This document shows, in pieces, positions 34,861-63,911 of a stretch of DNA of 64,000 nt (the first letter of the stretch is position 1; every line of letters begins with the position of its first letter). Source of the stretch: a virus; IMG/VR virus record IMGVR_UViG_3300045988_083782; one strand, given 5' to 3'. The notes beneath the pieces are model-generated. The model was not told where the DNA came from and made no database searches. It was given only the letters and a program-made list of their open reading frames with translations. The translations under genes were made by a program, and so were the position numbers.

Positions 34861-36945
34861 ATGGAAGACAGATAGATAGTAAGCAAGATTGATTTTTATA
34901 AGCCTATTAAGAATAGCAATAAGTTCAGAAAGCCAGCTCTATAGTACATAGAGACTGGCTCTTATTGTTCCTACCCTAAGAATACTACAGAGTATTTTCA
35001 ATTCTGGGATAAGGAAATTAGATATTGTATAGATGGTTATACTGCTGAAGACGGTGATTGGATAAGCGGGTATAACTATTTTTATTTGAACTATTGTCCT
35101 ATCTCTAGAGTAGTGTATGAAACATATACAGATAGATTTGGCAATCAAAAGAAACGCAAAGTAAAGAAAGTAGAATTTGCTGATTTCTGGGATTATGATT
35201 ACTATTACTTTACTGCTATATAGGAAGCTGAAGAATCAGGTACACATATGTGTGTATTAAAAGCCAGACGTCGTGGTTACTCCTTTAAAGGTGCAGCTAT
35301 GGCTTGCCGTAACTATTATCTAATACCAGATAGTAAGACATATATATATGCATCAAATAAACAGTATCTTACTGAAGATGGTATTCTTACTAAAGCGTGG
35401 GACTACATGGACTTTATTGATAAGAATACAGCTTGGGGTAAGAAAAGATCTGTTAATACTTAGATGCGTAAACGTGCAGCTGTTAATGTTAAAGACGAGT
35501 ATGGTAATGAAATAGAATTGGGTTACAAATCTGAAATCATTGGTGTTACTCTAAAAGACAATCCTGACGTAGTACGTGGTAAATCAGGTAAGCTTATCTT
35601 ATTTGAGGAAGCAGGTTCATTCAGTGAATTAGGTGCAGCATGGCAGATTGCTAGACCTTCTGTAGAACAAGATGGTGTAGCGTATGGTCTTATGTTAGCA
35701 TTTGGTACTGGTGGTGACCCTTCTTCAGCATTTGATACACTGAAGGACATGTTCTATAATCCTAAAGGCTATAATTGTTTAGGCTTCTAGAATATATGGG
35801 ATGAAAACCCAGGAGATAAACCGTGTGGATTCTTTGTGCCACAGTATACTAATATATCTGACATGGACGATAATGGCAATCGTCTGTATATGGATGTAGA
35901 TGGTAATACTTTGCATAAAAAGTCAATAGACAGAATATTAGACTTACGTAGAGATGTAATAGAAAATGCTACTAGCACTACAGCTGTAGATAGATATGTA
36001 GCAGAGCGACCTATTACACCTGCTGAAGCAATGCTCGAATTTAATGGTAACATCTTCCCTAAGAAAGAATTACAAGCACATTTAGCTATGATTCGTACCA
36101 ATCGTAGTCTACAAAATCACAAACAAGTAGGTGACTTGGTGTTTGGTGATGATGGCTTACTTAAGTGGATACCTAAGAAGAGAGGCGACATTACTAAATA
36201 TCCGTTAAGTAAAGATGATGACCCTACTGGTTCAATAGTAATATGGGAACACCCAGTATAGGACGCACCTGTTGGATTGTACATAGCGGGTATGGACCCG
36301 TATGACCATGATTAGGCTGGTACTAATTCATTAGGCTCTATGTTCATTTACAAGCGATTCTAGAGCTTTGAAGAATATTATGATATAATTGTTGCTGAGT
36401 ATACTGGAAGGCCTTCTACAGCAGAGGAATACTACGAGAATGCACGTAAACTATTGCTTTACTATAATGCTAGATTGATGTACGAAAATGAACGTAAAGG
36501 CATATTCCCATACTTTACTGCTAAACATTGTGATTACTTACTAGCAGATCAACCTGATATCATTAACGACATTGTTGGTAACTCAAAAGTATAGCGTAGA
36601 AAGGGTTGCCATATCAATAAGTAGATTAAGGACTGGGGTGAAGGTATGATAAAAGATTGGCTTAACGAAGAGTATGCTCCAGGCAAAAAGAACTTAACCA
36701 AGATACTATCAGAACCGCTATTGGAAGAACTTATAGGTTATAATGACAAAGGAAATTTCGATAGAGTGTGTGCGTTAATATAGCTAATGATTTATAAAGA
36801 ACAACTACATAATTTAGTTGTTAAAGAAAAGACTAAAGAGAATAGGAATAGGATATTATTTGATGGGCCAATATTTGCGCAACAGTGGTCAGATGAACCA
36901 AGTATGCCTAACCTATTTAATGATTCAAATACGTATACGTTTTAA
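34861..36945 (+). CDS. terL: terminase large subunit (11 in-frame TAG read as sense)
   Basis: A single frame runs from ATG 34861 to TAA 36943-36945 (694 codons). It links track ORFs 35248, 35464 and 35836 and untracked pieces. ATPase-region ARRRGYSFKG, KLILFEEAG and nuclease-region GMDPYDHD are present. All interruptions are TAG. Confidence 0.8.
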
Positions 36946-36947
36946 TT

Positions 36948-39449
36948 ATGAATAACATTAACATATTTCCTGCATAGAAAGTACCTATGTCTAAAAAGAC
37001 CAAGGAATGGAAAGAAAGCTGCGTGGATTATATTATTGGTCACAGTGCCTCTTCCAGAAATGGTAATAGTAGGAGTAGGGAAGAAGAGATGCAGACATAC
37101 TATGATCTGTATAATAGTATATACAATGAAAAAGATCTAAAGTATGTTACTAACCCATTTAAACAAGATGATGGGTTTCCTGCAACTGCTTAGGATTATA
37201 ATATTATTAAACCAAAGATAGATCTATTACTTGGAGAAGAGACTAAGCGCCCATTCAACTTTAGAGTAGTAAGAACTAGTGATATTGCTACTAGTGATCT
37301 ATAGGATAAAGCTAAACAATTACTTATTGATTATGTATAGGCATCTATTATGTCTAAACTTGGTCCCGAAGAGTAGGCTAGATATCAAGAGGCTTTACAG
37401 TCTGGTGAGATAATGACACCTGAGTAGATACAGAAATACTTAACAAAAGATTATAAAGATATTGCAGAAATTGCAGCACAACATAGTCTAAACTATTTGA
37501 AGCAGAAGTTAAATGTTACACATGAATTCTTCAAGGGGTGGAAGGATGCATTGATAGCTGGAGAAGAGATTTACTATGTAGGGGTAATTAATGGGGAACC
37601 TTATGTTGAAAGAGTAAATCCACTAAGTTTCAGTTATGAACAATCTGCTGATTTAGAATTCATTCACGAAGCATCTTGGTGCTGTCGTAAAATGAATATG
37701 TCTGCTACTGAGATCTATGACAGATTCTATGATAAAATGTCAGAGAAGTAGTTAAACGAATTGCTGGATATGATGGATGATGGTACCAGAGGAGGACTTA
37801 ATCCACAGGTTCGTAAGACATCTTTAGACTATCCGCATATTAAAACTAGAACTATTAATGGTTTTAGTTCTAACCCATTTCAAAATGCAGATAATATCAA
37901 TGTATGGCATTGTTGTTGGAAATCGTTTAAGAAGATTGGATTTGTTACTATCTTTAACCCTGAAACTGGGGCAGAAGAGGAATTTGAAGTAGATGAAAGT
38001 TATAAAGTTACAGGTAGGGAAGTTAACGTAGAATGGACATGGATTATCGAAGTATGGGAAGGATACAGAGTTGGAGAAGACCTATATATAGGTATACAGC
38101 CAGTTGAGTATCAACATATCTCAGCTGATAACCCTAATTCGCAAAAACTGCCTTATACTGGCGTAGTATACAACAATACCAATAGTTCTCCTAGGTCCTT
38201 AGTTAGTATGATGAAACCATTACAGTATATGTATATTGTAATATGGTATAGACTTGAGCTAGCAATGGCTAGAGATAAAGGTAAAGTAGTAACTATGGAT
38301 ATTACTTAGATACCTAAAAGCATGAATATTGATGTAGCAAAGTGGATGCATTACTTAGGAGCTTTAGGTGTTAACTTTGTAAACCCATATGAAGAAGGTT
38401 GGGATATACCTGGTAGAGAAGGTGGTAAGCCATCACAGTTCAATCAGATTACCGCATTAGATCTTACTATGGCTAATACTATTGATCAATACATTAACCT
38501 GATGGATAAGATTGAATCAATGGTATCCGAGATTACTGGTGTTACTAAACAAAGAGAAGGAGCAATTTCATCTAATGAATTAGTAGGTAATGTTGAAAGA
38601 TCTGTAGTACAATCCGCTCACATTACTGAACCGTTATTCTGGGTTCACAATCAAGTAAAGAAAGAAGTATTAAGTATGTTACTCAATACTGCCAAGTTTG
38701 CATGGAAAGATGGCGATAAGAGATGTATACATTATGTATTAGATGATGCTACACGTGCATTCTTGACTCTTAATGATGACTTCTTCTATGAAGATATGGA
38801 TATCTTTTTGGATGATTCTACTAAGAATCAGCAACAGTTAGAAGCACTTAAACAGCTTATGCAGCCTGCTATGCAGAATGGTGCTAGTCTATTAGATATC
38901 GCCGAAATCATTACAATGGATAACATTAATATGATTAAGAATCGCTTAGAAGACATTGAACAGAAGCGTATGGAACAGCAGCAAGCTTTGGAAGAGCAAC
39001 AGGCTCAGAGAGAACAGCAGATGATCCAAATGCAGAATGAAGTTAAGGAAGAGGAATTGATGATAAAAGAAGCAGAGATGGATCTTGAAAAGTATAAGAT
39101 AGATTCAGATAACGCTACTAGGATTACAGTTGCTCAACTTCAGGCTTACAGAGGATTAGAAGATCAAGATTAGAATGATAATGGTATTCCAGATACTATG
39201 GAAATCGCTGCACAAGCTTTAGCTGAACGTAAACAGGCATCTGAAGAAGCTGGTAAACAATTTGAATTCAATGCTAAACTTCGTGAACAATAGATGAAGA
39301 AAGAGATTGAAGACAAGAAGATTCAGCTTGAAAGAGAGAAATTAACAGCTGCTTAGAAACTACAAAAACAAAAGGATGAAGCGGCTATGCAAAGAGAAAA
39401 ACTTAAAGCAAAGACATCCCTAAAAAATAAAGTAGTAGGAGAGAAGTAA
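36948..39449 (+). CDS. portal protein (11 in-frame TAG)
   Basis: A single frame of 833 codons links track ORFs 36987, 37497, 37761 and 38322. The position right after TerL, the size and the Gln/Glu-rich C-terminal tail fit a portal. Confidence 0.65.
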
Positions 39450-39862
39450 TGGAAAAACTAGATCAATAGATAAGTGTAGTAAATAATAGATTATTACTAC
39501 CTTTAAAAGTAAATGGTAAATCTGTATACTTCTTAGTAGATACTGGCGCTTCTATTGCTTTAGTGGATATAACAAAAACTAAAGAATTAGGATATAAACT
39601 TGGCAGTAAACTATCTTCTACTATTGTAGGAGCTGGTGGAGAAGCATCAGAAGTTTATCATACTAAAGATTTAGACGTAGATTTAAATGGTCATAAGTTG
39701 TATCAGTTTGTAGCTACTAATATAGATAATATAAAGAAGTCTATTAAACAAAATACAGATTATGAAATATTTGGTATACTTAGTCTGAAACAGATGCAAG
39801 ATATTGGTATGATTATCGATACTGCATCCGGTAATATTTACTTTAAAGAAAAGGAGAATTAA
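39449..39862 (+). CDS. retropepsin-like aspartic protease (1 in-frame TAG)
   Basis: Reads MEKLDQ-TAG-ISVVNNRLLLPLKVNGKSVYFLVDTGAS, with the D-T/S-G-A active-site signature. The ATG overlaps the portal TAA. Confidence 0.55.
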
Positions 39863-39864
39863 TT

Positions 39865-40395
39865 ATGGCATGCGGAAATAATTATTATGTTTACAAACAT
39901 AGTACTCCTAACAATAAAGTATACATCGGAATAACTAAGTAGAATCCAAACCGTAGATGGAGAAATGGGCATGGATATAAAGATTCTCATCTATTTTTCA
40001 ACGCTATTATTAAATACGGATGGTTAAATATAACACATGAAATACTAAAGGAAGGTTTATCTTTTGAAGATGCGTGTAAATATGAAAAATATTACATAGA
40101 TTTATATAAATCTAACGATAGAGAATTCGGTTATAATTTAACTAAAGGAGGCGGAAGAAAGTCAGACCAGATCAATAAAACTGAATTTATCAAAATTGGT
40201 ACTGGTAAAAATAAAGGGAAAGAAATATTAGTATATAATGTTAACGGTGAATATATTGGTGAATTTATATCATCATATCAAGCAGCCAAGGTATTAAATT
40301 GCGATTAGGGGCATATTCGTAAATGTTGTCAACATAAAGAAGGGAGAACTAAACATAAAGGTTACATTTTTAAATATAAGGAGGAAATACAATGA
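39865..40395 (+). CDS. free-standing GIY-YIG homing endonuclease (2 in-frame TAG)
   Basis: YVYKHSTPNNKVYIGIT is followed by R..NGH and a YEKYYI..Y region. The C-terminal part is a DNA-binding-like segment SYQAAKVLNCD.GHIRKC. Confidence 0.65.
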
Positions 40396-40478
40396 GTTGC
40401 GGAGGAAAGAAATCCAGCTCTACCAAAGGTAAAGGTGGAAAGAAAAGCAAATAATATTAGTAATTAAAATTAAACAAT

Positions 40479-40712
40479 ATGGAATGGGTGAAAGGAACAG
40501 ATAAACAAGAATACATTGATGAATTACTTAAGTCTGGATTTGTAGATAGCGGTATAACTGCAATCATAGATGTTGATGATATGAAGTATTACGAACAGCT
40601 TGAAACTACTCTTTATCACCCAGAATTCCATATATTTGTAGACATTTACACCAAACACGCTACTATTAGAACAACAAAAACATATCTTGGCAAAGAATAT
40701 TTTGAACAATGA
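40479..40712 (+). CDS. hypothetical protein
   Basis: 77-aa ORF. Confidence 0.4.
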   Translation: MEWVKGTDKQEYIDELLKSGFVDSGITAIIDVDDMKYYEQLETTLYHPEFHIFVDIYTKHATIRTTKTYLGKEYFEQ

Positions 40713-40750
40713 ATAGATAGGCATTTAAACAAAGAATACAATAGTATAAG

Positions 40751-42067
40751 ATGTATAAAGAACAGAATCCAAATACATCTTATATAGACTGGAAGAATTT
40801 ATAGAAGTATGAAGATGGTGGAGAAGTAGGTGGTAAAAAAGAACCACCTTATCCTTCTTTCTATAATGGTCGTAGAGTAAATAGATGGACAGGTGAACCT
40901 CTAGCTACAGGTGCGGTTAAAGCTGCTTTTGACATAGAGGATGCCGCTAATCTTACTCCTGTGGGCGATGCCATTACTGTCAAAGATATGTCTCAAGCAG
41001 TATTAAACAAAGACTGGGCTGGTTTAGGTATTGCATCATTGGGTCTTATACCAGTAGTAGGAACTGGATTAGGCAAAGTTATTACTAGAGGTGTACGTGG
41101 AATTGCTAAGAATATTGAAAGAGAGTCTACAGATGCTGTTCGTAGATCAGTGCCTACTGTTAATAAGGATAGATTTACTAGACAGTTAAATAAAGTAATA
41201 GAGAAAATGCAATAGGAGAAAAGTTCATTGCGTGATCCTAATTACAAAATCTCAGACATTAGTGATGCTAACAATGCTAGAAATGAAGTACTAGGAGATT
41301 TAAATAAAGAGTATTTTGATAAAGCTAGAGCAGTAGATGCTCAATATGGTACAGACTACGAGAATACTTATAAGAAAATACTTGATGCTTATAATGATCC
41401 AGTTGAATACATGCAAAATACTCCTTATGTGAAATATGAAGATCTAGGAATAGACAATTAGGGTAAAATTAACTTTGCTCCAGATGATGAAAGAGCATTT
41501 GAAATAGCTGTAGAAAACAGTCCTGCAAAACTAAAAGACTATGTAGTAACAGCTGGAAAAGACAATGCTACTAAAGGAACTATTTACCATGAAATGTCTC
41601 ACTTAGTTGATGGTATGTAGAATCCAGGAGGTACTTTTGATATTAAAGATAACAAGCTGTTGTGGGAAGCAGGCAAAGAAAAGCATTTCAAATTATTTAA
41701 AGAATACAATAATGCAGTCAGTAATGCTGAAAAGATATCTGAGTATAATTATAGGTATCTCACTAATCCTTTTGAAATGAAAGCATTTGTAAATACTGCT
41801 AGAAGTGATATGGCCTAGTTAGGCATACTTAATAAAAGAACATAGAGTGCTACTAAGGAACAGATTAATAGTTATCTACAACACCCTGAAGCACATGGTT
41901 CATTAAAGAAATTATTTAAATTACATAAAGACCCTGATCAATTTTACAAAATGTTTAATGCTATGCCATATCTTGGATTAACTGGTCTTGGAGTATATAA
42001 TCTTTACCAATACGATACTAAGAACAATGGACAGTATATACCCAATATATCCGATACCAACTTATAA
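40751..42067 (+). CDS. hypothetical virion-module protein with HExxH motif (several in-frame TAG)
   Basis: A single frame of 438 codons links track ORFs 40961 and 41228. It contains GTIYHEMSHLVDG. Confidence 0.5.
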
Positions 42068-42242
42068 AAGTGGTGGTATCCATATAAAGAAGAAAAACAG
42101 GGGCAAATTTAATGCTTTAAAGAAAAGAACAGGAAAATCTACTGAAGAGTTAACTCACAGTAAGAATCCCCTAACAAGAAAAAGAGCAATCTTTGCACAG
42201 AATGCGAAGAAATGGAATAAAGGTAGAAAAAAGAAAAAATAA
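42027..42242 (+). CDS. small very basic protein
   Basis: Reads MDSIYPIYPIPTYKSGGIHIKKKNRGKF...KGRKKKK. It overlaps the end of the previous gene in another frame. Confidence 0.35.
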   Translation: MDSIYPIYPIPTYKSGGIHIKKKNRGKFNALKKRTGKSTEELTHSKNPLTRKRAIFAQNAKKWNKGRKKKK

Positions 42243-42254
42243 AACAATATAGTT

Positions 42255-43442
42255 ATGGAAAAAAACACATTGAATGGATTTGAAGTATTTAGTAGTTTCA
42301 ATCCTAATGTAGGTAAAAATTCTGATGATATTGACATAGATCCCAGCAAGATTGAAGAGTCTTTTGAAGAGATGTCTGACGAAGAGTTAGAGCAAGTAAA
42401 AAATATTGCTAAACAAAAGAAGACTCCTAAAATCGAAGATGATGAAGAGGAAGAAGTAATAGAGGACGAAGAGGATACTGAAGAAAAGGAGGAACCTAAG
42501 AAATCTAAGAAAGCTTCTAAACAAAAAGAAAAAGAAGTTGAAGAGGAAGAGGAAGAGGAAGACGAAGAAGATGACTCTGATGATGACAATGAAGAAGGAG
42601 ATGTATAGGTTACTTCTTTCTTCAAAGCATTAGCTGAAAAGATGAACTGGGAAATTGACGATGAAGACGAAGTTCCTCAAACAGCGGAAGAGTTAATTGA
42701 GTACTTCCAAGAAGTAATTGAAGAAGCATCTGTACCTACTTATGCTAATGAAGAAGTAGCTAAGTTAGACGAATTTGTAAAGAATGGTGGAGATATTCGT
42801 GATTACTTATCTATTGACGCTCCTCTGGATTTGGATGACATTGATATTGAAGATGATGAAGTAAATCAGAAAGCTGTACTTAAAGAATTCCTTAAAGAGA
42901 AAGGATTCAATAGTAAACAGATTGAGAAGAAACTGACTAAATATGATGAAGCTGGTATTCTTTCAGATGAAGCTGAAGACGCTTTAGAGGCTCTTAAAGG
43001 CATTAGAGAAGAAAAGAAACAACAGCTATTGGAGGATCAGAAAAAGCAGGCAGAGACTGCTAGAAAGAACCAACAGGCATTTTTTGACAACGTTGTCAAG
43101 GAAATAAAAGGCCTAGATAATATACGTGGTATTGCTATTCCTGCAAAGGATAAACATGTTCTGCTGGAATACATATTTAGACCTGAAGCTGATGGCAAAA
43201 CTAGATACCAAAAGGATTATGCTAAGAGTATCAAGAACTTGATCGAGTCAGCTTATTTTACTATGAAGGGTGATACATTGCTAGACATAGCTAAAAAAGA
43301 AGGTAAAAAGAAAGCTATAGACAGTTTCAAGAACTCATTGAAGAATAATAGTGGTATCAATAAGAAATCACAGAAACAAGTAAAATCATCGGAAGATGAT
43401 ACTTCATTATGGTCATCCTTTACACGCAAACTTCGTGTATAA
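42255..43442 (+). CDS. acidic scaffold-like protein (1 in-frame TAG)
   Basis: Track ORFs 42255 and 42642 are in one frame joined by TAG 42606-42608. The sequence has Glu/Asp runs and helical content, and the gene lies immediately upstream of the capsid gene. Confidence 0.5.
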
Positions 43443-43478: not shown

Positions 43479-44948
43479 ATGGATAATAATATTCTTAATA
43501 ATTTAGTACTATACAAAGGCAAAAGATTTTCTGATCTGATTGACACAAATAAGATCTCTTATGCTTCACAGCAAAGTCCTTATCAGGTATCTACTGTATT
43601 GTCTTATGTATTTGGTACAAAAGACAATGGTTATAGTACTTCTTTAGACATGCTTACCGGTGGTCTTGGAAACGTAATGACTATCGACAAAGCATCTTGG
43701 GAATGGCCTGTAATGATTGATGCAGATAGAGCTGTAACAATTAGAGATGCAAAATGGCAGGGAGAAGCTATCAGCGCTACTTCAACAGCTGGTTTAGGTA
43801 ATACACCTATCATGTTGTGGTTAGAAGAGAACATGTTTGCTTCTGGTGCTATTCTTGAATTTGATAACAAAGAATTCCAGGTACGTGTTTCTGGAGCTCC
43901 TTATCAGGATGGTAACCTGTGGGTTTATACTTGCTTTGTAGCAGATGGTAAACCTTCTTCTTATATTCCTGCTGATCTGTTAACAGCTGGTTGTCAAGTA
44001 TCTCGTCTTGCTTCTGCTTACGAAGAGTACTCAGAAGAAGGTGATATCCTGAACTACAGCACTCACTTCAAGATGCGTAACTACCTGACTACTATTCGTA
44101 TCAACTACGATATCACAGGTTCTGCTTATTCAGATGTAATGGCAATTGCTCTGAGAGATCCTGCAACAGGTAAAACATCTTATTTGTGGGCTGACTATCA
44201 GGAATGGCTTGCACTTCGTGAATGGTATAAGAGAACTGAAAGAATGTTGGTTTACATGAAGAGTAATGTAAACAAAGATGGTTCTTGTAACTTGAAGGGT
44301 ACTAACGGTCGTCCGGTATTTATTGGTGCTGGTCTGCTCGAACAGATTGCTCCGTCTAACAGACGTTACTATACTCGTCTTTCTGCTGAACTGTTGGAAG
44401 ATTTCTTAGCTGACCTGTCTTATAACTGTCTTGGTACTAACGAACGTAAGTTTGTTGCTTTGACTGGTGAAATGGGTATGCGTGAATTCGACCGTGTATT
44501 GAAAGAAAAAGCAACAACTATGAACTTGATCGATACAGTATTCGTAACAGGTTCTGGTGATAACTTGACTTTCGGTGGTCAGTTCAAGACTTATAAGATG
44601 ACTAATGGTATCGAATTGACGTTGAAATACTTCCCGTTGTATGATGATACTACTTATAATCGTCAGTTGCATCCGGTTACTCTGAAACCGCTGGAATCAT
44701 ATCGTATGACATTCCTGGATCTGGGTAGACGTGATGGTGAAGCTAACATTGTTAAGGTAGTTCGTAAAGACCGTGAATTCGTTACTTGGTATACTGGTGG
44801 TGCTGTTGCTCCGTCTGGATATGCTAAATCTAAAGATACTCTGAGATCTAATGGTAAGGACGGTTATACTGTATACTTCCTTGGTGAAATGGGTATCATG
44901 CTGAGAGATCCTAGAGCTTGTGGTGAGCTGATCATGGAGGCTGAGTAA
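43479..44948 (+). CDS. major capsid protein (no TAG)
   Basis: An uninterrupted 489-aa ORF follows the scaffold-like gene and is followed by a strong terminator. Codon usage is visibly shifted toward CTG, CGT, GGT and CCG, suggesting high expression. Confidence 0.6.
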   Translation: MDNNILNNLVLYKGKRFSDLIDTNKISYASQQSPYQVSTVLSYVFGTKDNGYSTSLDMLTGGLGNVMTIDKASWEWPVMIDADRAVTIRDAKWQGEAISATSTAGLGNTPIMLWLEENMFASGAILEFDNKEFQVRVSGAPYQDGNLWVYTCFVADGKPSSYIPADLLTAGCQVSRLASAYEEYSEEGDILNYSTHFKMRNYLTTIRINYDITGSAYSDVMAIALRDPATGKTSYLWADYQEWLALREWYKRTERMLVYMKSNVNKDGSCNLKGTNGRPVFIGAGLLEQIAPSNRRYYTRLSAELLEDFLADLSYNCLGTNERKFVALTGEMGMREFDRVLKEKATTMNLIDTVFVTGSGDNLTFGGQFKTYKMTNGIELTLKYFPLYDDTTYNRQLHPVTLKPLESYRMTFLDLGRRDGEANIVKVVRKDREFVTWYTGGAVAPSGYAKSKDTLRSNGKDGYTVYFLGEMGIMLRDPRACGELIMEAE

Positions 44949-45790: not shown

Positions 45791-46483
45791 ATGACAATAA
45801 AGGATTTACATATTGCTTTTAAAACTGGTGCTGATAAGAATGAAAAGGCAGTTGCGTTTGGTGGCTGCCCAGCATTCACACCAGAAGAAATTGATCAATT
45901 CCTGATGCAGGGATATGTTGAAGTATTATGCAATAAGTTTACTGGATCTAATACTAGACAGGAAGCATTTGAAGGTAGTGTCAAAAGAATAGCAGATTTA
46001 GAAAGATTAGTAAAAACTGATAATGCTGTAGCTGTTACTTTTGACTCTAGTTCTAATGTACTTACTATGTCTGATTTCTTTAAAGATTCAAGCAATACTA
46101 ACAACAGATTGTTCTTTGTAAATGCTGTATTACACTTTGGCAATAATCAGGCAAATGTAGATCTAGTAGATCATAAAACAGCTGATAGGTTCCGTAAAAC
46201 TTATAATAACGATCCCTGGATTCCAACACCTAAGGCTACTATTGCTGATAACTAGTTAAAGATATATATAGATACAACTAGCATGAAAGCTCCTTATACT
46301 GTTGACATTACTTATGTTAAATATCCTGATAAGATCAATTATAAAGAATATAATAAGGATATTACAGAAGTACCTGAATACGTATTATATGAAGCAGTAA
46401 ATAGAGCTGTAGTAATTGCTCTGGAAAATATTGAGTCTAGGCGTACAGAAACTAAGCTACAAATAAATAATTTACAAGAATAA
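45791..46483 (+). CDS. hypothetical structural-module protein (1 in-frame TAG)
   Basis: Track ORFs 45791 and 46283 share a frame joined by TAG 46253-46255. Confidence 0.55.
46456..46481 (+). repeat. 26-bp direct repeat, copy 1 (3' end of 45791-46483)
   Basis: GCTACAAATAAATAATTTACAAGAAT is repeated exactly at 46496-46521. Confidence 0.85.
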
Positions 46484-46495
46484 TATATTGTAGTT

Positions 46496-47260: not shown

Positions 47261-47261
47261 A

Positions 47262-54300: not shown

Positions 54301-55942
54301 TTTGTTACTGGATTATTATGTGACGGGTTCCGGTTGGGGAACGTTAAGTGCTGTTTCTAAGTTAGATTGGTATCATGGATCTTATGGTGGGGAAACTGCT
54401 TTTGGCGGTAGACAACAAAACACGATGGGATCTGCTGAGATTGTTTATTTGCGTGGTGGAGGTGTCTATTATTATAGAACTACTAATCACGGACAGTTAA
54501 CTGTTCATCCAAATGGGTATTCTTGGGCTAGCGGATCTTATACGTATAGTGCGGCAGTAAAAACCTCACAAGATAATTCTCCAATGGAGAAAACATTTGA
54601 TCAGGTATATTGGGCACCTGCAAATCTAAGAACAACAAGAAATTTATGGGGACAACCTTTTAATGGCACAAGCGATGTATCTGGAGCTTTGCAATATGTG
54701 ACTACCATTAATGCTTCTAGCACTATCTATACAGGTGGTGATATTATTGCTTACAGTAGACTGTTTTGTGGAGGTTATTTATATGTTCATAGAAACGCAC
54801 ATAGTAGTAGTGCAGCTCCTGCTATATCCTTAGCAATCGGAGACACTGATACCGGATTTAATTGGTATTCAGATGGTGCTGTACAGATTTATTCTAACGG
54901 GTCTGCTGTAGGAATGTGGACAGGTAGTGAGTTTAGATATGGTCACGGGTATTTTAAACAAGCTAGTGGAAACGACTATTCTCAATTAGGTATAATGGTC
55001 AACGGTAACGGTACTGCCAATACTATTAAACCTGGAATCGGTTTTCACCAACCAGGAGTATTTGCAGGATCTATAAGAATGAATGATGGTTCTACATTTG
55101 GACTCTATGCTCAGGGTGGTAGTGGTCTAGCAAACCTTAGTTTGAATGGATGGTATACAAATTTCGGTTATATAAATGGTGACGGAATACACCTTTCATC
55201 AGGTTGGCTTAGGACTGTTGGGGCTACAGGCTGGTATAATGAAACCTATGCTGGTGGTATGTACATGGCAGATGGTACTTGGATAAGAACTTATAACGGT
55301 CGAAAGTTCTATGTTGATAATGCAGAGGTAGATGCTATATTAACTCAGGGAGGTTTTAGAAGCAATGGCAATAGTCAAGTTGGCTTACAAATTGATGGTT
55401 CTGAATCTACTAGGACTATTATCTATGGAAAAATTGGTTCTACTGTAAATTCAGTAGTTGCCAGATATGCTGTAAACTGGTATTCTGAATGGGCACGCTT
55501 TGATGTACATCGAGGAGGAGGAACAGATATTCTAAAATTTAGCTGGAAACATAATGATACAGAATTAATGTATCTAGGTATGGGAGGTTATTTCCAAGTT
55601 AACGGTACTATTGTTTCTACAGGTGAAGTTACAGCATATTCTGATATAAGACTTAAAACCAATATTAAACCTCTAGATTATAAGGGAAGGTTAGCTCCTA
55701 AATGGTTTATCAAAGATAATAAGCCTAGTATTGGCTTCATTGCACAAGAGGTGTAGGCTTTATACCCTGAACTTGTTAAAGTAAACACAAGTACTATAGA
55801 GAATTACCTGAGCTTAAACTACGGTGCAATTACCGCAGTTCTCTCAGCTCAAGTAAATAAAGTAGAGGATGAAGTAGAAGTACTTAAAAATAGAATCAGA
55901 TAGCTTGAGAATGAAGTTGCTCTGTTAAAACAGAAACCTTGA
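51323..55942 (+). CDS. long tail fibre: constant N-terminal part plus currently expressed C-terminal module with S74-type chaperone end (15 in-frame TAG)
   Basis: A single frame runs from ATG 51323 to TGA 55940-55942, linking track ORFs 52112, 53090 and 53492. It has repeated GE[IV][ST]AYG motifs. The C-terminal SDIRLKTNIKPL...GFIAQEV is typical of the intramolecular chaperone peptidase domain of fibres and spikes. Confidence 0.75.
53153..53185 (+). repeat. 33-bp inverted repeat, left copy (inside the fibre ORF, encodes FLKADGSVDGN)
   Basis: TTCCTCAAAGCAGATGGGAGTGTAGATGGGAAT has its exact reverse complement at 58575-58607. Confidence 0.95.
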
Positions 55943-58574
55943 TCTCTAGCTCTCTTACTTTGTTTTTCAACGTAGTTACTTCATCTTCAACATGATTCAA
56001 CTATGCGGACAATACAGCAGTACATCCATTGTAGTTCAGAGATAAATATGGGCGATTCTTATCCTAGCCTAATACTAACTCTGGATACAATGCTTGTACT
56101 TCTTGTGCTATAAAACCTATTGATTGCTTACCATCCTTTACATAGTGTCTAGGTATAAGTCTTCCTCTATAGTTTAATGTATGTATATTACTTTTTAATC
56201 TAGCATCTGAGTATGCAGTTACCTCACCAGATGCAACCACACTGCCAGTTACTGATAGAGTACTTCCAGTAATTGTTACAACATAACTTCCTGTAGTATT
56301 GTTTACATCTCCATTTCTTCTACCTATATACATGTTTCCATCCTAATTAGAGTATATTCCCCATGTATAACTACGGTTAGCTAAATTAATTCCTATGTGA
56401 TTAGTGTTGTATAGCTTTATACCACAATAATGACCGCCAATACCCCAAGATCTGTAACCAGAGTTATATAACACTTTATTATTGTATACCTAAACCATAT
56501 CAGAATCAGTCATATAGATCCCACCTCCATAAGATTGAGAGTACCATCCGGTAGCACCGTCTGTACGTATCCAAGACGAAGCTCGAATATCACCAGATAC
56601 ATTTAATTTATAATCAGGACTAATTCCTCCAATTGCAACATTACCACCTCCATTACACATCTGTAAATGTTGACCTGATTTATGCTGTAAGTACAATCTA
56701 GAGTTCCAGTTATTTATCTCAGAAGAACATCCTCCGTCATTACCAGAATTATCAGTTTCTATACAAATATTTCTACTTTTTAAACCAATACTTGAAAAGA
56801 AGGTTTGCGCTGACCAATTGACGCCATCTTTATTACTATTATAAGCAGTCCATACTTCATAGTTTGTACCATAAGAAGTCCCATTAGAATTTTGGGTGCT
56901 TATACCAAATCTAGGTGTCCCATTTCTAATAAAATGTAAGGCACACATTGGAAGTACATCACCACCTGAGTATCCATTAATCCATAAGGTATCAGACCAA
57001 GGTCCTCCAAAACCAATACCAGTCATAGCAACTCTTAACCCCATGTGTTGAGAGAAATAAGTTTGCGGATTAGCTTGCGTTCCACCATTATATCTAGTAG
57101 GTAAATACGTAGCATACCCATCTATATTTCCAGTAATTGTATTCTTAGAGGTCAAGTTGGTAAATACCGCAGCTCCATTTGTTCTTATACTCCAATAAGC
57201 TTCCGCAGCTCCATCAGCAGAGCAAAGGTCTTGACAATATACCCATCCGGAATTCCCCGAAGATCCTATATACAGATTATGATTTAAAGAACAAACTCTT
57301 TGCCCATATATTATCGCACCAAAGATTTTACCAAATTGCCATGTTTCAGTACCTAAGAAAGAATTGCCTGAAGAAGATCCTTGCTCAAATGGAATTAATC
57401 CGGGTTTTGCTGTTCGTATCCAATCCGTATCAATATTTCCAACTTTACCCATTCCATAGTATCCATTCTTGTTTATAGCTCTGATGTAGTTATCATCATA
57501 TCTATTCATAGAAGTCTTAGGAACAAGTACAGCTCTTGATAGTCCTGTTTCTGCTGTTATAATAGATATACTAAATGAATTAATGACATAATGATTTGTA
57601 GTATTCTGACCACCAAATATTTGATATAAAAATACTTTAGGATAATGCCATTCATAAGTTAAACTCCCTAGTAATATACAACATCTACCTGCATTATCAT
57701 CGTAAGCAACTCTAACATCTCCACTAAATTCTCCATTAACTTGATAACTATAATTATAATAACCTGGACTAGCTGTATAATTATAAAAACTTACAGTTAT
57801 TTCAGAGCTACCTTTATTATCGTATTCATAAAGCATTATCTTATACACAGCCATAGTATTACTCCAAGTAATAGGCAATACTATCTTTATAGTTCCGGTC
57901 ATAGTACTACCGGTTCCATCAAACATAGAACCATTCCCAAAATAATTTGCTACAAATTTACCTCCTGACATATTTTGTGTAGACAAAACATCTGCGCTAA
58001 ATTTATTGCTTATAATCCAAGGAGCTTCAAACCATTCACCGCCTTGATTACCCATAAGTATTATTCCAGCTGTTGCACGATAAGCATCAAAATCAGTGTA
58101 AACAAATGCTACTTGTTGTGATCCATTTGCAGCAGAAAATACTAGTTTAGGAGGAGCAGAAAGAGATGGAGGATTGACAGCATCTGCTGAAATGAATAGA
58201 GAACCAGTCATGGTATCTCCAGTTTTTCTCACATACAATCCATCTGCATAATCTTTATCTAATACCATCTTCCATCCATTCCAAGAAGTGCCTATGCCTG
58301 TACGAAAACGAAGGTTAGCATTAGGATTATTTGTAGACGATGGTCCCGCTAATTGCCATGTTACATAGTCTACATTTGACCATCCACTTACAGATATACC
58401 ACTCCACCAAGTACCAGAAGGCATATCGTTTAGATTAAAGAAAGTGCTAATAGTTCTAGATTCAAAGTCTGTGGGAGCTGGGAAAGATTCTCTTCTATCA
58501 ATAACATGTAGAGAATTACTAACATTAGATTCTAAGACTTTATTCTAATTACCATTATATGCTAAGGCATACAA
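53186..58574. other. putative invertible tail-fibre segment (two convergent alternative C-terminal modules)
   Basis: The segment is bounded by the perfect 33-bp inverted repeat. It contains the 3' 2.76 kb of the plus-strand fibre gene and a startless minus-strand module. No recombinase gene was seen in the window. Confidence 0.55.
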
Positions 58575-58607
58575 ATTCCCATCTACACTCCCATCTGCTT
58601 TGAGGAA
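55896..58607 (-). CDS. alternative tail-fibre C-terminal cassette, no start codon in present orientation (5 in-frame TAG)
   Basis: The minus frame is continuous from the repeat (FLKADGSVDGN-LYALAYNGN...) through track ORFs 56490-58424 and 56064-56333 to TGA (rc of 55896-55898). It ends with SDARLKSNI...GFIAQEVQALYPELV. An in-frame TAA lies 11 codons upstream of the repeat, with no ATG, GTG or TTG between. Confidence 0.65.
58575..58607 (-). repeat. 33-bp inverted repeat, right copy
   Basis: Exact reverse complement of 53153-53185, in the same reading frame relative to its module. Confidence 0.95.
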
Positions 58608-58869
58608 CTAAGTTAAACAAATATAAATATGTATAAAATATTAGAAAATATAAGTAGTAGAGATCTATTAGAACACATATATGTAATGTAGTTATAGATA
58701 CTAAATAAACTAAATAAAATGGATGATGATGGTAAAGAATTTGCCTTAAATCTATTAGCTGATTTAATAGGTTCTAAGATAGTAGAGCGATAGGATTCTG
58801 TAATATTTGATTCTATCAATACTACAACTCGTAGTTAATTACGTTAAATATACATAAATTATATTAATA

Positions 58870-59313
58870 ATGGAAAGAAAATAGATTATACAAGAGCTTA
58901 AACAGTACTTTAGTATTAAAGAACTAGTATGCCCACATGTATATAGTAAGTTTGGTGAGACAGCTTGGATGTTCTTATCAACCCCTTTACTTCATACTCT
59001 ACTAGTAATACGTAGAGATATATTACAGAAACCTATGACAATAAACAACTCATCTAACTATGCACAAAGAGGTCTAAGATGCAACATGTGTTAGATAGTA
59101 AAGAGTAAGAATTCAGCATACTTGTCTGCACACGTATTAGGAGAAGGATGTGATTTCACATCGCCTAATGTATCTGCTGAAGATATTAGAAATTTAATTG
59201 CAGAGAATGAAGACAAATTGCCTTATAAGATTAGATTAGAGAAAGATGTGAACTGGGTTCATGTTGATTGCTATGATAATTCAGATAATAAAATAAGTTA
59301 CTTTAAAGCATAA
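58870..59313 (+). CDS. endolysin, peptidase M15 (VanY / L-Ala-D-Glu peptidase-like) (2 in-frame TAG)
   Basis: ATG 58870 is in frame with track ORF 59122. Zinc-ligand pattern SAHVLGEGCDF and NWVHVD are present. Confidence 0.65.
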
Positions 59314-59338: not shown

Positions 59339-59351
59339 GGGGGGGGGGGGG
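59339..59351. repeat. homopolymeric G13 tract followed by A6
   Basis: CGGGGGGGGGGGGGAAAAAA lies in the 54-nt spacer between the endolysin gene and 59368-59628. Confidence 0.9.
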
Positions 59352-59367: not shown

Positions 59368-59628
59368 ATGAAAAACAATATACAAAATGCAAATGGTGTA
59401 GACAACTCACTACAAGTAAGTCGTCTAAATGATGTCACTGGTACTAACTTCAAATTAGATGGAGATAGACCTTTCTTAATTAAGAATATTACTGATTCTA
59501 ATATAACATGTACTGTTAGATTGGCTAATATGAATACAACTGTTAGTACTGTATTCTATCCTGGATGGAATCCTGAATTAGTTGTAGAGATTGTTGGTGA
59601 AGTAACTGGTTTACAATATGGGAACTAA
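59368..59628 (+). CDS. hypothetical protein
   Basis: 86-aa ORF. Confidence 0.5.
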   Translation: MKNNIQNANGVDNSLQVSRLNDVTGTNFKLDGDRPFLIKNITDSNITCTVRLANMNTTVSTVFYPGWNPELVVEIVGEVTGLQYGN

Positions 59629-60598
59629 TATTGCTATAGGTAACTTAATAGGTAAGCACAATACTGATACACAGAAAATAAACTTTCCTTTCTCTAATTC
59701 CCTTGTAGATTATTGGAATTTTGGAGGGAAATCCAATTTTGATAAGGATAGAACAACTGTAACAGGACTGTTAGGCAACGTACTAACAGCATATAACTTT
59801 GGATGGAGTTTAATGTCAGGGTATGGAGGGTATAATGAAAATTACTTAAAGTACAAAAAGGCTGCTAATGTATTCGTAACAGATGATCATAGTATTACTA
59901 TAATGAATTTTGTTCCGGCCAATACTTTTGTCGCTTACCAATATGATACTGATCATATAAAAGCTACTAAAGTAAGAGTAACTGGATTAACTGCAACGGA
60001 TCAGCTTACTTATGAATATCGTCCTTCCGATGTAGGTAGTCGTGCAGTATTCCCAATTCCTGAAGATGGAGAATACGACTTACCCGAAAGTATTCAAAGT
60101 AGTTCTGGAACTCCGGGATATAGTGTTGGTTTTGCAGTTAGAAATGCGTTGACTAAGAATGTAACAATTGAGCAAATTCCTCTATATGAAGGAGCTATTG
60201 TTACGGATGGTGTTGATGATTATCTAAAGCTTGATAAAGTAGGGTATAAGGTGGGTACTATAATTATAAAATTTAAACCTATTAATATAAAACCCAATAT
60301 TGTTAATTCTATATTAAATATTCATACAGATGAAGTAGCTTTACAATATGATACTTCTGGTGTTATTAGCAGCAATTTTACAGCATATAAAAATTATGAA
60401 GAATATGGTGTTGGAATATTTAATGTAGATAAAAATGCTATAACTCCTCTTACATTAGGCTGTAAATTAAGTAATTCAGGTAGTCCAATGGAATACTGTA
60501 ATATGGCTCTTTATAGTATTGCTATTTACGACAGAACTCTATCTGATCAAGAAGTACAAGAAGTTATCAACTTTATGAATAAAGATAATAAATCATGA
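59618..60598 (+). CDS. hypothetical protein with LamG/concanavalin-like C-terminal signature
   Basis: 326-aa ORF. The ending ..MALYSIAIYDRTLSDQEVQEVINFM resembles the terminal strand of LamG-type lectin folds. Confidence 0.45.
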   Translation: MGTNIAIGNLIGKHNTDTQKINFPFSNSLVDYWNFGGKSNFDKDRTTVTGLLGNVLTAYNFGWSLMSGYGGYNENYLKYKKAANVFVTDDHSITIMNFVPANTFVAYQYDTDHIKATKVRVTGLTATDQLTYEYRPSDVGSRAVFPIPEDGEYDLPESIQSSSGTPGYSVGFAVRNALTKNVTIEQIPLYEGAIVTDGVDDYLKLDKVGYKVGTIIIKFKPINIKPNIVNSILNIHTDEVALQYDTSGVISSNFTAYKNYEEYGVGIFNVDKNAITPLTLGCKLSNSGSPMEYCNMALYSIAIYDRTLSDQEVQEVINFMNKDNKS

Positions 60599-60819
60599 AA
60601 TACGTAATTACAACAGTAGATTGGTGTAAACAGCATAACATCAAATTAGGAGAAGAAACCAGATATTCATTAGATGGTAAACATGTAATACTACATTATG
60701 ATCTAATTAAACCGGTATTACTAGGATCTGATGTAGTTGATATATACGAACACGATAGTGCAGAGTTAAGAGATATACTTAGTAGTAGTGAATGGTCTAA
60801 ACAAGAAAGTATATTGTAA
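60595..60819 (+). CDS. hypothetical protein
   Basis: 74-aa ORF. Confidence 0.45.
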   Translation: MKYVITTVDWCKQHNIKLGEETRYSLDGKHVILHYDLIKPVLLGSDVVDIYEHDSAELRDILSSSEWSKQESIL

Positions 60820-60839
60820 TAAATGTTAATTATTATATA

Positions 60840-60855
60840 TACTCTTACTTTACTA
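60840..60855 (+). promoter_or_regulatory. 16-nt motif TACTCTTACTTTACTA (copy 2)
   Basis: Identical to 29437-29452. It lies 46 nt upstream of ATG 60902. Confidence 0.4.
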
Positions 60856-60901
60856 TACGTTAGTAATTAGTACTAATACATATTATTTAAAAGTATACAG
60901 T

Positions 60902-61120
60902 ATGAAAGTATATGTAGTAATTGCTACAGAACTTATAGAAGGCATTGACGAAGTAGACAGTATATGGTTTACTGAAGAAGATGCTTATGAAAGAGTAGAC
61001 CAATTAGAATCGGATGAAACTGTTAATTGGGACTACTATGAAGTAAGAGCTATGGAAGTACATGGCAAACAGCATTTAAAAGTAATAAGCAAAGTAACAG
61101 AAGACAATGAAGGAAAATAA
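60902..61120 (+). CDS. hypothetical acidic protein
   Basis: 72-aa ORF. Confidence 0.45.
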   Translation: MKVYVVIATELIEGIDEVDSIWFTEEDAYERVDQLESDETVNWDYYEVRAMEVHGKQHLKVISKVTEDNEGK

Positions 61121-61595
61121 AAAGAGTACTGAAAAACAGGAAGAAGTTAAAGAGAATGTAATCAAAGCTAGTAGATTTGAAGTTGAACAATTACTTAATC
61201 CGTTTATTGGTAATATTAAGATTACTAATCTTAGTAAAGAAGATAAAATCAAAGTAATTAAACTTAAACTTGAGTTATCAAAAGTAACTAAAGAAATTGA
61301 AGACTTTAGAAAGACTACTGTTGAAAGTCTTGATAAACCTGAAAACTTTGATAAATTGAAAGAAGCGGCTGAGAAAGAAGGAGCTTCAGAGGAAGATAAG
61401 AAAGCTTACAAAGAAGTAGAAGCTGCATATAACATGAAGTTCTCAGAAGTAGCTATTCCTTACTACAATACTTATATTGATATTAAAGCTGATCATATTT
61501 CAGAAGATGCTTTCTTCTCTATTGTAGAAGACAATAATATGGATATGGCAGTATTCAGTTATGAACAACTGTATAAACAATTAGTAAATAAATAA
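61107..61595 (+). CDS. hypothetical protein
   Basis: 162-aa ORF. Confidence 0.5.
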   Translation: MKENKKSTEKQEEVKENVIKASRFEVEQLLNPFIGNIKITNLSKEDKIKVIKLKLELSKVTKEIEDFRKTTVESLDKPENFDKLKEAAEKEGASEEDKKAYKEVEAAYNMKFSEVAIPYYNTYIDIKADHISEDAFFSIVEDNNMDMAVFSYEQLYKQLVNK

Positions 61596-61596: not shown

Positions 61597-62655
61597 ATGG
61601 CAGCACTAGGTTAGACTAATATTAGTACTACTCTTGTAGGTAATACCTTAGGCATTAGCACACATAATGTTTCACAGTTATGTACTAGTGACAAGATTAA
61701 CATACTAAGTGGTCGTAAACCTGTGAAGCAGCCTTATAGTAATGTAGATGGTGTATAGAATTGGTGGAAGGCAGCAAACGGTAACTGGGGGATAAAACTC
61801 CCAGAAACCGGAAGCTCTACAGCATTACCACCAATTGGTCAACCTATGGCAAGGTGGCAACATGATAAACCAACTGGAGGTCCTAGTGAACCTTTTAGAT
61901 TAGGAGATTTCCGTGGTTATGATCATAATGCACCAGCTATCTTTAGTATGCACCCAGATCCAGGATTGTATCCAAATACTGAATTCAGGTGCTCTATATT
62001 ACTTAAGCAGAATGCACAGGTTCCATTAAATGAAATAGCAGATATTAAAAGAGGTTACATTGGATGTATTATACGTCATCAATCTACTGGACAGCTTAGG
62101 TTTAGAACTCTAAATAAGTCTGTTATGGAAATGCAACAGCAAGAATATGTAGTCACATTAAATGTTCCTAACTGGCCAGATGGTAAAGTAGATGTATATA
62201 TGGTTTGCTCTTTTGCAGAAGCATCTGAACAATCTTATGATAGTGTCAATACTACTATAATGTCACTCAATCAAAATGATTTAGAGACAGCACACATGGT
62301 GAAAACAATTGCTAAACCTGAACCTAACAGCTTTAAATTTGAATACAAAGTTGTTAATGAATTTGCAAACGAATATCACTTAGAGTGTACATTTACATCT
62401 ATTAAAGGTGCGTGGGAGAAAGCTCGCTTTTCAGTTATGCTTTCATCAGATCCTCCGGGAGCATTTTTAGGTGGTATGGGTGAATCACTATCTCCTGCTC
62501 CAATTGGAGAAATGTTATCACAAGGAGAATCATACACATTCAATTCACAATCATTTACTCGTGTATAGACTTCTTCAAATAACTATGTGAATTATACAGC
62601 CAGATACTTAGGAGATGACTATCAATCTGGTTCTATTATATTTAGAGCAAAATAA
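61597..62655 (+). CDS. hypothetical protein, paralogue of 62880-63911 (3 in-frame TAG)
   Basis: ATG 61597 is in frame with track ORF 61846 and continues past TAG 62566 to TAA 62653. The shared motif is GDFRGY[DN]HN. Confidence 0.55.
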
Positions 62656-62656
62656 T

Positions 62657-62737
62657 ATGATAGTAATTAAAGGAAACTTAACAATTGAAAGAGACAAGCT
62701 CAGAGAACTTCTTCTGAGACAAGCTCAGAAGAGTTAA
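62657..62737 (+). CDS. 26-codon ORF MIVIKGNL... containing a triple-arm hairpin element
   Basis: It is homologous at its 5' end to the ORF starting at 63925 (MLVIKGNL...). Confidence 0.3.
   Translation: MIVIKGNLTIERDKLRELLLRQAQKS
62693..62733 (+). repeat. S / S-prime / S triple-arm element, copy 1
   Basis: ACAAG-CTCAGAG..TCTTCTGAG-ACAAG-CTCAGAAGA. The second hairpin, CTTCTGAG-ACAAG-CTCAGAAG, is a perfect 8-bp stem. Confidence 0.7.
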
Positions 62738-62879
62738 CTACAGAAATAGTAGCGTACGCTAATCTCAATGAATATGACATTACCGACGCTACTATTTTAG
62801 TTGGAGATATAACAGCTGAAAAGCTGCACGGGTTAGTATTAGTTACAGGTGAAGTAGCCCAAATAGAGGAGGGCACGAT

Positions 62880-63911
62880 ATGACATCAAATGGTATTATA
62901 TCAGCTCCTGTAACTATTACTGATATTAAAAATACTATAGGCTTAAACTCAACAGGATTGTGGGATCTAGTAACTAGAGCAAGAACTGGTGGAGTGAACA
63001 GCCGAGCGTTTAATACAGGAGATGGTTATTTGATAAAAGATGCCAGACCTTTCTGGAATATATACTCAAATGAATCACCAGGTGAATGGGCTCCATAGAA
63101 AGAAGCAGAGGGGCCACTTACATTTAGAATGAAAATGGATTCAAATGGTAAACTTAGAGCTTCAATGGGTGACTTCCGAGGTTATAATCATAATTCTTCA
63201 GCACCTACTGTTGGTGGAGGAGATTATCACTTTACTCAAGGTGCAGGTTCTGGTTCATTAGTAAGAGAATTTACTTTCAAGCCTATGCTTGGAAGTTATA
63301 ATTGGAGAAAGGTAGCAGGAGCTACTTTATATAGAGCTGCAATTAAAGGTGATAATATTGGAACAGTATATGGTACTCCAGTAGAAATAAGTAGTGAAGC
63401 TAAAACTATAAGTATTACTTTAACTATAAATACAAACAATGCAGCTACATATAATTATAGTTTATATGTTTACATAGGTAGTGGTACAGTAAATGATTTT
63501 AACTCTCTAGGGTATGTACCAGATGTTGGTAGTATGCGAATTATTATTGATCCTAAACCAGTAATTACAGCAGCAGTTGCAGTAAAAGAAAGTGGTAGTT
63601 ATAGGTACAATGTGTTTTCTATGGCTGAAGGCGTTACTTCTAACAATACTACGAGATTTAGTGGTACGTACAGATTAAATTCTGGAGTATCTACAGATGG
63701 TAAATTACTTACTAAGATTACTTATAAGTGGGGTAGTACTGAAGCTGGAAATGCAGGAAGTTTAGATGTAACTAGTTTCAACTATAGAGAAGGACCTTCT
63801 TATCTTAGAAGCTATCCTGCTGGAGATAATGTAGAAGCATTTACTGCTGATCCTAGTAGAGTACCTACTGGCTTTGAAACAAATTATCAAGCAACCTTCT
63901 GGTACGGATAA
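62880..63911 (+). CDS. hypothetical protein, paralogue of 61597-62655 (1 in-frame TAG)
   Basis: Track ORFs 62880 and 63129 share a frame joined by TAG. GAGGAGG lies 7 nt upstream of the ATG. Confidence 0.55.

Follow-up and report, generated by a model that had tools for sequence, protein, structure and literature searches.

In-frame TAG codons in the late genes of a crAss-like phage are probably read as glutamine by a phage-encoded suppressor tRNA

We analysed a 64,000-nucleotide stretch of viral DNA (IMG/VR record IMGVR_UViG_3300045988_083782), called the window below, in which a block of late genes (34861–63911) falls apart at TAG codons when read with the standard genetic code. In these genes TAG very probably specifies Gln through a phage-encoded transfer RNA with the anticodon CUA, tRNA(CUA), and the early genes are readable by the host, an arrangement that would act as a translational gate on late genes. 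A preliminary description of the window, made from its letters alone, had proposed a TAG-to-Gln (table 15-like) code for this block, and that reading is supported by the intact late frames, by Gln at the matching positions of homologues and by the tRNA(CUA).

The late frames are interrupted by TAG and by no other stop codon. Across 27 late genes (9,257 codons, 34861–63911) there are 76 in-frame TAG codons and no in-frame TAA or TGA, and the genes end at TAA (20) or TGA (7) but never at TAG. The per-gene counts in the preliminary description proved exact: 11 in the terminase large subunit (TerL), 11 in the portal protein, 15 in the tail fibre, 2 in the endolysin, and 2 and 3 in the GIY-YIG homing endonucleases. 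That description had also named a pattern that would speak against recoding, namely TAA or TGA breaking these frames as often as TAG; neither ever breaks them. Its placement of the first TAG at codon 5 of TerL holds only if the ATG at 34861 is taken as the start, and the first TAG within the profile alignment is at codon 28.

Each stop codon was also treated as sense in turn, and open reading frames (ORFs) were called anew over 34861–64000. With TAG as sense, ORF coverage is 0.86 and the longest ORF has 1539 amino acids, against 0.56 and 754 amino acids under the standard code; coverage reaches 0.60 for TGA and 0.68 for TAA, with which the longest ORF stays at 754 amino acids. These reassignments have little effect in the rest of the window. 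Furthermore, profile alignments of the read-through products, which the preliminary description had proposed as a check, continue across the TAGs. The TerL product matches phrog_6681 in one stretch (residues 9–668, E=6.8e-156) and the portal product matches phrog_6547 in one stretch (residues 6–823, E=5.5e-167), each spanning all internal TAGs. These frames are also intact in the orthologues of seven relatives, whose TAGs lie partly at other positions. Because translation table 11 breaks up TerL, portal, fibres and endolysin, the late part of the window needs annotation with TAG as Gln.

Capsid, TerL and portal profiles, together with nucleotide similarity, identify the source, a gut phage, as crAss-like (Crassvirales/Suoliviridae). 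Its TerL-to-capsid region shares ~77% nucleotide identity with the RefSeq Suoliviridae genomes cr60_1, cr114_1, cr125_1, cr53_1, cr109_1 and cr6_1, and identity to Buchavirus, Aurodevirus and Blohavirus genomes is 76–77%; compared with its RefSeq relatives, the window phage is a separate species-level genome. The window is part of a phage genome of roughly 100 kb. An independently assembled strain (L146) is identical in sequence to the window (100%).

To identify the amino acid inserted at TAG, we aligned eleven late proteins with orthologues from seven Suoliviridae genomes, with TAG written as X. The positions facing window TAGs hold Gln 61 times, TAG 58 times, Glu 13 times and Lys 11 times, with other residues fewer. 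Gln thus accounts for 61 of the 129 sense residues, a 12-fold enrichment over its background of 3.4%, compared with 1.5-fold for Glu and 0.9-fold for Lys; no residue other than Gln exceeds 1.5-fold. Where the sense residues facing a TAG are unanimous, they are Gln in 20 of 33 columns. Scored with the alignment's own substitution profiles, the TAG-facing residues give a log-likelihood of -274 for Gln and -445 for the runner-up, Glu, and the margin of Gln over any other residue is 170 natural-log units or more. The residue aligned to TAG in relatives is therefore overwhelmingly Gln, as the preliminary description would predict.

An outgroup gives the same answer. The relative cr50_1 uses the standard code, because its TerL gene is free of TAG, its portal gene ends at TAG and it has no tRNA(CUA). 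Its portal protein carries Gln at 9 of the 11 window TAG positions. Within the window itself, the homologous C-termini of two fibre cassettes, A and B, align TAG with Gln at two sites and with Glu at a third. A further contrast at the edge of the fibre inverted repeat, CAA in the expressed arm and TAG in the silent arm, was first taken as support for Gln and then dropped, because crossover would occur within the 33-nucleotide core and the silent-side TAG never joins a coding frame.

The tRNA(CUA) directly precedes TerL together with a tRNA-Met. It folds as an ordinary cloverleaf with a 5-base-pair anticodon stem and a normal D-loop; its U1 is mismatched with U72, and position 73 is A. A tRNA(CUA) occupies the syntenic site upstream of TerL in all six recoded relatives, where RefSeq annotates it as 'tRNA-Gln', and is absent from the standard-code cr50_1. 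The stems of the seven phage suppressors differ, partly by compensatory changes, whereas U1, the CUA anticodon, A37 and A73 are invariant and position 72 is U or A.

We searched 185,579 species-representative genomes of bacteria and archaea for the exact 19-nucleotide D-arm of the suppressor and recovered 119 tRNAs. Among these, 73 are His(GTG) tRNAs with G1:C72 and mostly C73, whose checked sources are Candidate Phyla Radiation (CPR) bacteria or archaea. The Gln(TTG/CTG) tRNAs number 43 and include every Bacteroidales genome among the source-checked hits, and U1:A72 with A73 occurs in 29 of 34 scored Gln TTG tRNAs. The phage suppressors share this Gln-type signature at positions 1, 72 and 73, which supports but does not prove Gln identity and a Bacteroidales-type origin for the suppressor. 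A blastn search with the window-type and cr109-type suppressors against Escherichia coli genomes gave no match, the query being too short for a database of 28 Gb.

The genome search also found a tRNA with this D-arm on a Dysgonomonas metagenome-assembled genome contig (L091, JAVBJR010000837.1). It has the anticodon UUA, which would read UAA, and its acceptor stem begins GGTTCC, unlike the Bacteroidales tRNA-Gln set. It may represent contamination or a UAA suppressor.

The distribution of TAG follows the layout of the genome. GC skew and gene orientation divide the window at about 29.3 kb, and the rightward module runs from small middle genes through the two tRNAs to TerL, portal, capsid, fibres and endolysin. 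In-frame TAG is absent from the 36 leftward early genes (6,921 codons), which end at TAA, TGA and TAG in 29, 6 and 1 cases, respectively. The 10 middle genes (1,299 codons) likewise lack it and end at TAA (6) or TGA (4), never at TAG. Early and middle genes together (46 genes, 8,220 codons, no TAG) differ sharply from the late genes with their 76 TAGs (Fisher p=1.3e-21). Because the early genes have many out-of-frame TAGs (216 in frame 2 and 119 in frame 3), its in-frame absence is selective and not an effect of composition. Several early-region ORFs that contain TAG (10698–10952, 18594–19118, 25558–25992, 34242–34649 and others) were treated as non-genes, because they lack homologues in relatives and overlap real genes or tRNAs.

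The boundary is not absolute. The preliminary description had found the genes upstream of the tRNA pair uninterrupted, which is true of the 10 middle genes, although the ORF at 31806–32072 may hold a TAG at codon 14. It had also placed the recoding in the late block, where all 76 counted TAGs lie; some late genes are nevertheless TAG-free, and one gene outside the block (359–748), at the distal end of an otherwise standard-code replication operon, also bears a TAG. This gene encodes a DUF1064/Holliday-junction-resolvase-like protein of which the standard code would give the last 63 amino acids only. Its TAG is conserved in a relative (L157), and public gene calls give a 129-amino-acid DUF1064 product. 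Recoding is thus not strictly confined to 34861–63911. Indeed, in the identical strain L146 and in L157, TAG-bearing genes run past the right edge of the window to giant virion genes, one of which encodes 1482 amino acids with 22 TAGs.

Within the late block TAG is used unevenly. It makes up 21% of Gln-type codons across the block, 46% in TerL and none of 11 in the capsid gene. The capsid gene and its two abundant neighbours at 45036–45788 and 42255–43442 together have one TAG in 35 Gln-type codons (binomial p=0.0026). TAG is concentrated near gene starts, with 19 of 72 TAGs in the first 10% of genes compared with 28 of 262 CAA/CAG codons (p=0.0017; Mann–Whitney p=0.0003). The next nucleotide is a purine after 57 of 76 TAGs and after 162 of 285 CAA/CAG codons (p=0.004). 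A purine following UAG favours amber suppression. The 5′ bias and the purine context fit a gate at which late translation aborts early without the suppressor, along with selection for efficient suppression.

These patterns can be assembled into a model for gene control. Standard host translation would be able to read the leftward early and replication genes as well as the initial 5 kb of rightward genes. From TerL onward, UAG would serve as a Gln sense codon decoded by the tRNA(CUA), which is encoded at the boundary of the two blocks. The suppressor is presumably charged by the host glutaminyl-tRNA synthetase (GlnRS), and it would compete with host release factor 1 (RF1). If so, late proteins could not be completed before the suppressor accumulates, which would place a gate on the packaging, virion and lysis genes; we infer both the timing and the purpose of this gate.

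Several observations weigh against this interpretation. About half of the non-TAG residues that face TAG are not Gln, as is expected at fast-evolving sites. Full-length identity to the 119 D-arm tRNAs fails to separate Gln from His tRNAs (means of 50–51 of 72 nucleotides), and only positions 1, 72 and 73 are informative for this distinction. The window-type tRNA also lacks the G2:C71 and G3:C70 pairs, and its acceptor stem is unlike that of host-type tRNA-Gln. These two pairs are GlnRS identity elements of E. coli tRNA-Gln. No release factor, aminoacyl-tRNA synthetase or RF1 inhibitor that could account for the outcompeting of RF1 was found among the window proteins scanned against Pfam or PHROGs or in the precomputed Pfam hits of flanking genes. 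Finally, the gate would be leaky, with a TAG in one replication-module gene and none in the capsid gene or at 59368–61595.

The alternative that survives best, although we consider it unlikely, is that code 15 is always active, for instance through suppressor tRNA that is delivered or produced at once, that the TAG-free early genes reflect codon bias or mutational history, and that the suppressor mainly harms the host through UAG read-through, an anti-host role proposed by Yutin et al. (PMC7886860). Early genes almost lack TAG stops (1 in 36) and are therefore compatible with both codes, one replication-module gene contains a TAG, and the tRNA(CUA) lies downstream of the standard-code middle genes, with which it could be co-transcribed. 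Yet the lack of in-frame TAG in early and middle genes, set against its abundance out of frame, points to selection against TAG in the genes translated first, and the 5′ bias of TAG in late genes fits the gate. The two views are not mutually exclusive and are partly compatible.

It is far less probable that UAG is read through but specifies something different from Gln, for instance pyrrolysine or one of Glu, Lys, Tyr, Leu, Ser and Trp. ARAGORN does name the tRNA(CUA) 'tRNA-Pyl', a label that follows from the anticodon alone, and Glu and Lys are the next most common residues facing TAG, with Glu also at one of the three fibre paralogue sites. These signals are small beside the likelihood lead and enrichment of Gln, and the tRNA is a canonical cloverleaf with Bacteroidales tRNA-Gln features. 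Proteomics of other crAss-like phages also gave Gln (PMC9523058). Neither a pylT-type tRNA architecture nor the pylS/pylBCD genes characteristic of pyrrolysine decoding were found, and Pfam scans of window proteins, which did not cover every small ORF, returned no pyl-pathway domains. The weakest alternative, that the TAGs are true stops in late pseudogenes, assembly errors or separately expressed fragments, accounts for the fragmented table 11 ORF track but is effectively refuted by 76 interruptions that are all in-frame TAG, by the identical independent assembly, by unbroken profile alignments, by relatives that keep the frames with TAGs partly elsewhere and by a matching suppressor tRNA.

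Recoding of TAG to Gln by a suppressor tRNA thus remains the favoured reading, and it has precedents. Yutin et al. (PMC7886860) described TAG-to-Gln recoding, mostly in late genes, and suppressor tRNAs in delta-group crAss-like phages. Borges et al. (bioRxiv 10.1101/2021.08.26.457843) reported the same layout and proposed that it regulates late genes and lysis timing, and Peters et al. (PMC9523058) detected Gln at TAG in two crAss-like phages by metaproteomics. RefSeq already annotates cr60_1, cr114_1, cr125_1, cr53_1, cr109_1 and cr6_1 with TAG read-through. Given this published phenomenon and annotation, the finding is correct but already known.

The window phage resembles the delta-group code-15 phages in its Crass_capsid family, its gene order and its tRNA(CUA) and tRNA-Met directly upstream of TerL. 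It also resembles them in its TAGs in TerL, portal, fibre and lysis genes that align with Gln, and in its standard-code replication module. It differs from its relatives in TAG positions and in a capsid gene without TAG, which has 1–2 in relatives. Its suppressor differs from the cr114/cr109/cr6 type by the U1:U72 mismatch and another acceptor stem, and a two-cassette inverted fibre module sets it apart from the seven RefSeq relatives. The analysis adds detail to the gate model in the 5′ TAG bias, the purine context, the avoidance of TAG by the most abundant virion proteins and the TAG-bearing nuclease of the replication operon.

Two more distant systems offer comparison. E. coli supE is a mutant host tRNA-Gln with the anticodon CUA that inserts Gln at UAG with low efficiency in competition with RF1. 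The window tRNA is likewise tRNA-Gln-like with CUA, and sense TAGs in the window show purine enrichment after them, but it is phage-encoded and conserved and at least 76 essential codons depend on it. The Lak megaphages (TAG) and the Agate and Jade lineages (TGA to Trp, code 4) are also recoded (bioRxiv 10.1101/2021.08.26.457843). Like the window phage, they combine recoded structural and lysis genes with standard-code replication genes, a phage suppressor tRNA and a proposed role in late or lysis timing. In contrast, those lineages are unrelated, some reassign TGA instead, and some encode RF1, RF2 or an aminoacyl-tRNA synthetase as a 'code-change module', none of which was found in the window phage.

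Table 1. Coordinates of the features discussed in the text (window numbering; TAG, in-frame TAG codons)
Feature	Position	Strand	Details
DUF1064/Holliday-junction-resolvase-like gene	359–748	-	129 aa; TAG at codon 9 (722–724); phrog_190, E=1.2e-14, residues 5–106
Early/replication module	974–29217	-	36 genes: DnaG primase, AAA ATPases, DnaB helicase, DNA polymerase, ECF sigma factor, others
tRNA-like hit	20575–20639	-	
Permuted-tmRNA-like element	20756–21013	-	ARAGORN 'tmRNA*' (20665–21045)
RAGATH-9	22050–22210	-	Rfam 127.9 bits
Hatchet ribozyme	23340–23479	-	Rfam 87.5 bits
Type-II-like tRNA	25908–25990	-	83 nt; long variable arm; anticodon AUU, C33; ARAGORN Asn; Rfam tRNA 45.4 bits
RAGATH-7	26948–27146	-	Rfam 147.8 bits
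Middle genes	29477–34224	+	~5 kb of small genes including dUTPase; 10 genes, 0 TAG
Suppressor tRNA, anticodon CUA (reads UAG)	34529–34603	+	ARAGORN; Rfam tRNA 55 bits; CCA encoded
tRNA-Met (CAU), partner of the suppressor	34740–34813	+	ARAGORN, Rfam; syntenic in cr60_1, cr114_1, cr125_1
TerL	34861–36945	+	694 aa, 11 TAG, stop TAA; phrog_6681
Portal protein	36948–39449	+	833 aa, 11 TAG, stop TAA; phrog_6547
Aspartyl-protease-like gene	39449–39862	+	1 TAG; Asp_protease_2 (E=8.5e-10), gag-asp_proteas, RVP
GIY-YIG/NUMOD1 homing endonuclease, first	39865–40395	+	2 TAG
hyp77, hyp452, acidic protein	within 39449–43442	+	0, 8 and 1 TAG; acidic protein 'RecX-like' in relatives' annotation
Major capsid protein	43479–44948	+	489 aa; Crass_capsid PF23898, E=4.8e-217; 0 TAG, 11 CAA/CAG
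Gene called 'RecA protein' in relatives	45036–45788	+	0 TAG, 7 CAA/CAG
Seven structural/unknown genes and second homing endonuclease	45791–51319	+	1–3 TAG each
GIY-YIG homing endonuclease, second	46520–47260	+	3 TAG
Tail fibre	51323–55942	+	1539 aa, 15 TAG; constant N-terminal part codons 1–621
Inverted repeat, left arm	53148–53185	+	38 nt (33-nt perfect core); in fibre gene, codons 609–621 (SQFLKADGSVDGN)
Fibre cassette B	55896–58574	-	892 codons, 5 TAG; sole minus-strand late 'gene'
Inverted repeat, right arm	58575–58612	-	directly 5′ of cassette B, in frame
hyp69	within 58629–59313	+	3 TAG, no CAA or CAG
Endolysin	58870–59313	+	147 aa, 2 TAG; phrog_894, E=1.8e-15
TAG-free island	59368–61595	+	five genes, 720 codons, 0 TAG
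hyp352, hyp343	61597–63911	+	3 and 1 TAG

The gene that follows the portal gene (39449–39862) matches retroviral-type aspartyl protease families (Table 1) and is a possible prohead protease of unusual type, as judged from these family matches.

The tail fibre gene contains one arm of an inverted repeat whose other arm lies beyond the fibre, and the two arms bound a 5.4-kb segment (53186–58574). Cassette A is the expressed variable C-terminus of the fibre and ends in a Peptidase_S74 chaperone domain. Cassette B is a silent alternative C-terminus that lacks its own start codon; it too carries a terminal Peptidase_S74 domain, and it overlaps A tail to tail. If the segment were inverted, B would continue the reading frame of the constant N-terminus.

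Public contigs were searched with the repeat arm and with the neighbouring TAG-free gene. L146 has the arrangement of the window at 100% identity. In L022 the constant part (100%) is joined to B (99.3%), so that B is expressed, and in L024 and L152 the right flank (99.8–99.9%) is joined to A (97.3%), so that A is silent. The entire segment is inverted on one contig, inner junction included, in L151, and L023 shows the inverted arrangement in a more distant genome. Both orientations are thus seen across strains and samples, with near-identical flanks. Other loci depart from the two-cassette form: L015 and L018 carry a third cassette type, C; L020 has mosaic cassettes with swapped C-terminal ends; L011/L019, L021, L015 and L148 are single-cassette or deletion derivatives; and in L014 and L025 the stored DNA ends exactly at the arm end, which in L025 is the contig end. 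The locus L147 also bears on the fibre module.

We tentatively propose, while judging the balance to be slightly against it, that the segment is a programmed host-range switch of the phage Mu G type that alternates at least two TAG-recoded receptor-binding C-termini. Orientation follows the sequence variant of A, which is always expressed at 99.7–100% identity (n=5) and always silent at 97.3% (n=3); inversions may therefore be infrequent compared with sequence divergence. Neither the window proteins scanned nor the precomputed Pfam hits of the 10-kb flanks, which together cover ~90% of the genome, contain a Resolvase or integrase domain that would mark an invertase. Inversion would therefore need a host enzyme, an unrecognised enzyme or recombination at short homologies.

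The fibre module shares with the Mu G and P1 C segments a constant N-terminus, two opposed C-terminal cassettes, short in-frame inverted repeats and the occurrence of both orientations. It differs from those segments, which are inverted by the serine invertases Gin and Cin, in that no invertase gene was found adjoining it. The window phage also has no separate chaperone genes, each cassette carrying its own S74 domain; it is a virulent crAss-like podovirus, and its orientations were compared between strains and samples. The two-cassette motif is absent from the seven RefSeq relatives, and full-text literature searches returned no report of an invertible fibre segment in crAss-like phages. A true switch would constitute a bet-hedging host-range mechanism in the most abundant human gut phage family, which is usually thought to meet Bacteroidales surface variation by other means.

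Four contigs, each from a different sample (L149, L150, L153 and L155; 100,451, 43,964, 6,343 and 4,673 bp), start at ~59339–59341, between the endolysin gene and 59368, and three of them begin after a poly-G run. This common start suggests either a physical end of the genome or an assembly break specific to this site, and the TAG-free five-gene island begins just after it.

The early module also carries several structured RNA candidates. RAGATH-9, a Hatchet ribozyme and RAGATH-7 are intergenic and score above their Rfam gathering scores. A permuted transfer-messenger RNA (tmRNA)-like element predicted by ARAGORN matches the Rfam tmRNA_permuted model over its full length but below threshold (36.3 vs 47 bits; E=1.8e-5). 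The tag peptides that ARAGORN predicts (GKTFVSDYTRLSA, GNTSYVMDYTRLAA, GNFYVTDYTRIAA, GNNFVTDYTAIGA) are alike in the window and four of its seven relatives (cr60_1, cr114_1, cr125_1 and the standard-code cr50_1), and the relatives' elements lie at L002 7943–8389, L003 3076–3518, L004 5093–5542 and L008 5547–6042. The module further contains a tRNA-like hit and a type-II-like tRNA (Table 1). The relatives' tRNAs that come closest to the type-II-like one are cr60_1 Leu(UAA) and cr50_1 Cys(ACA).

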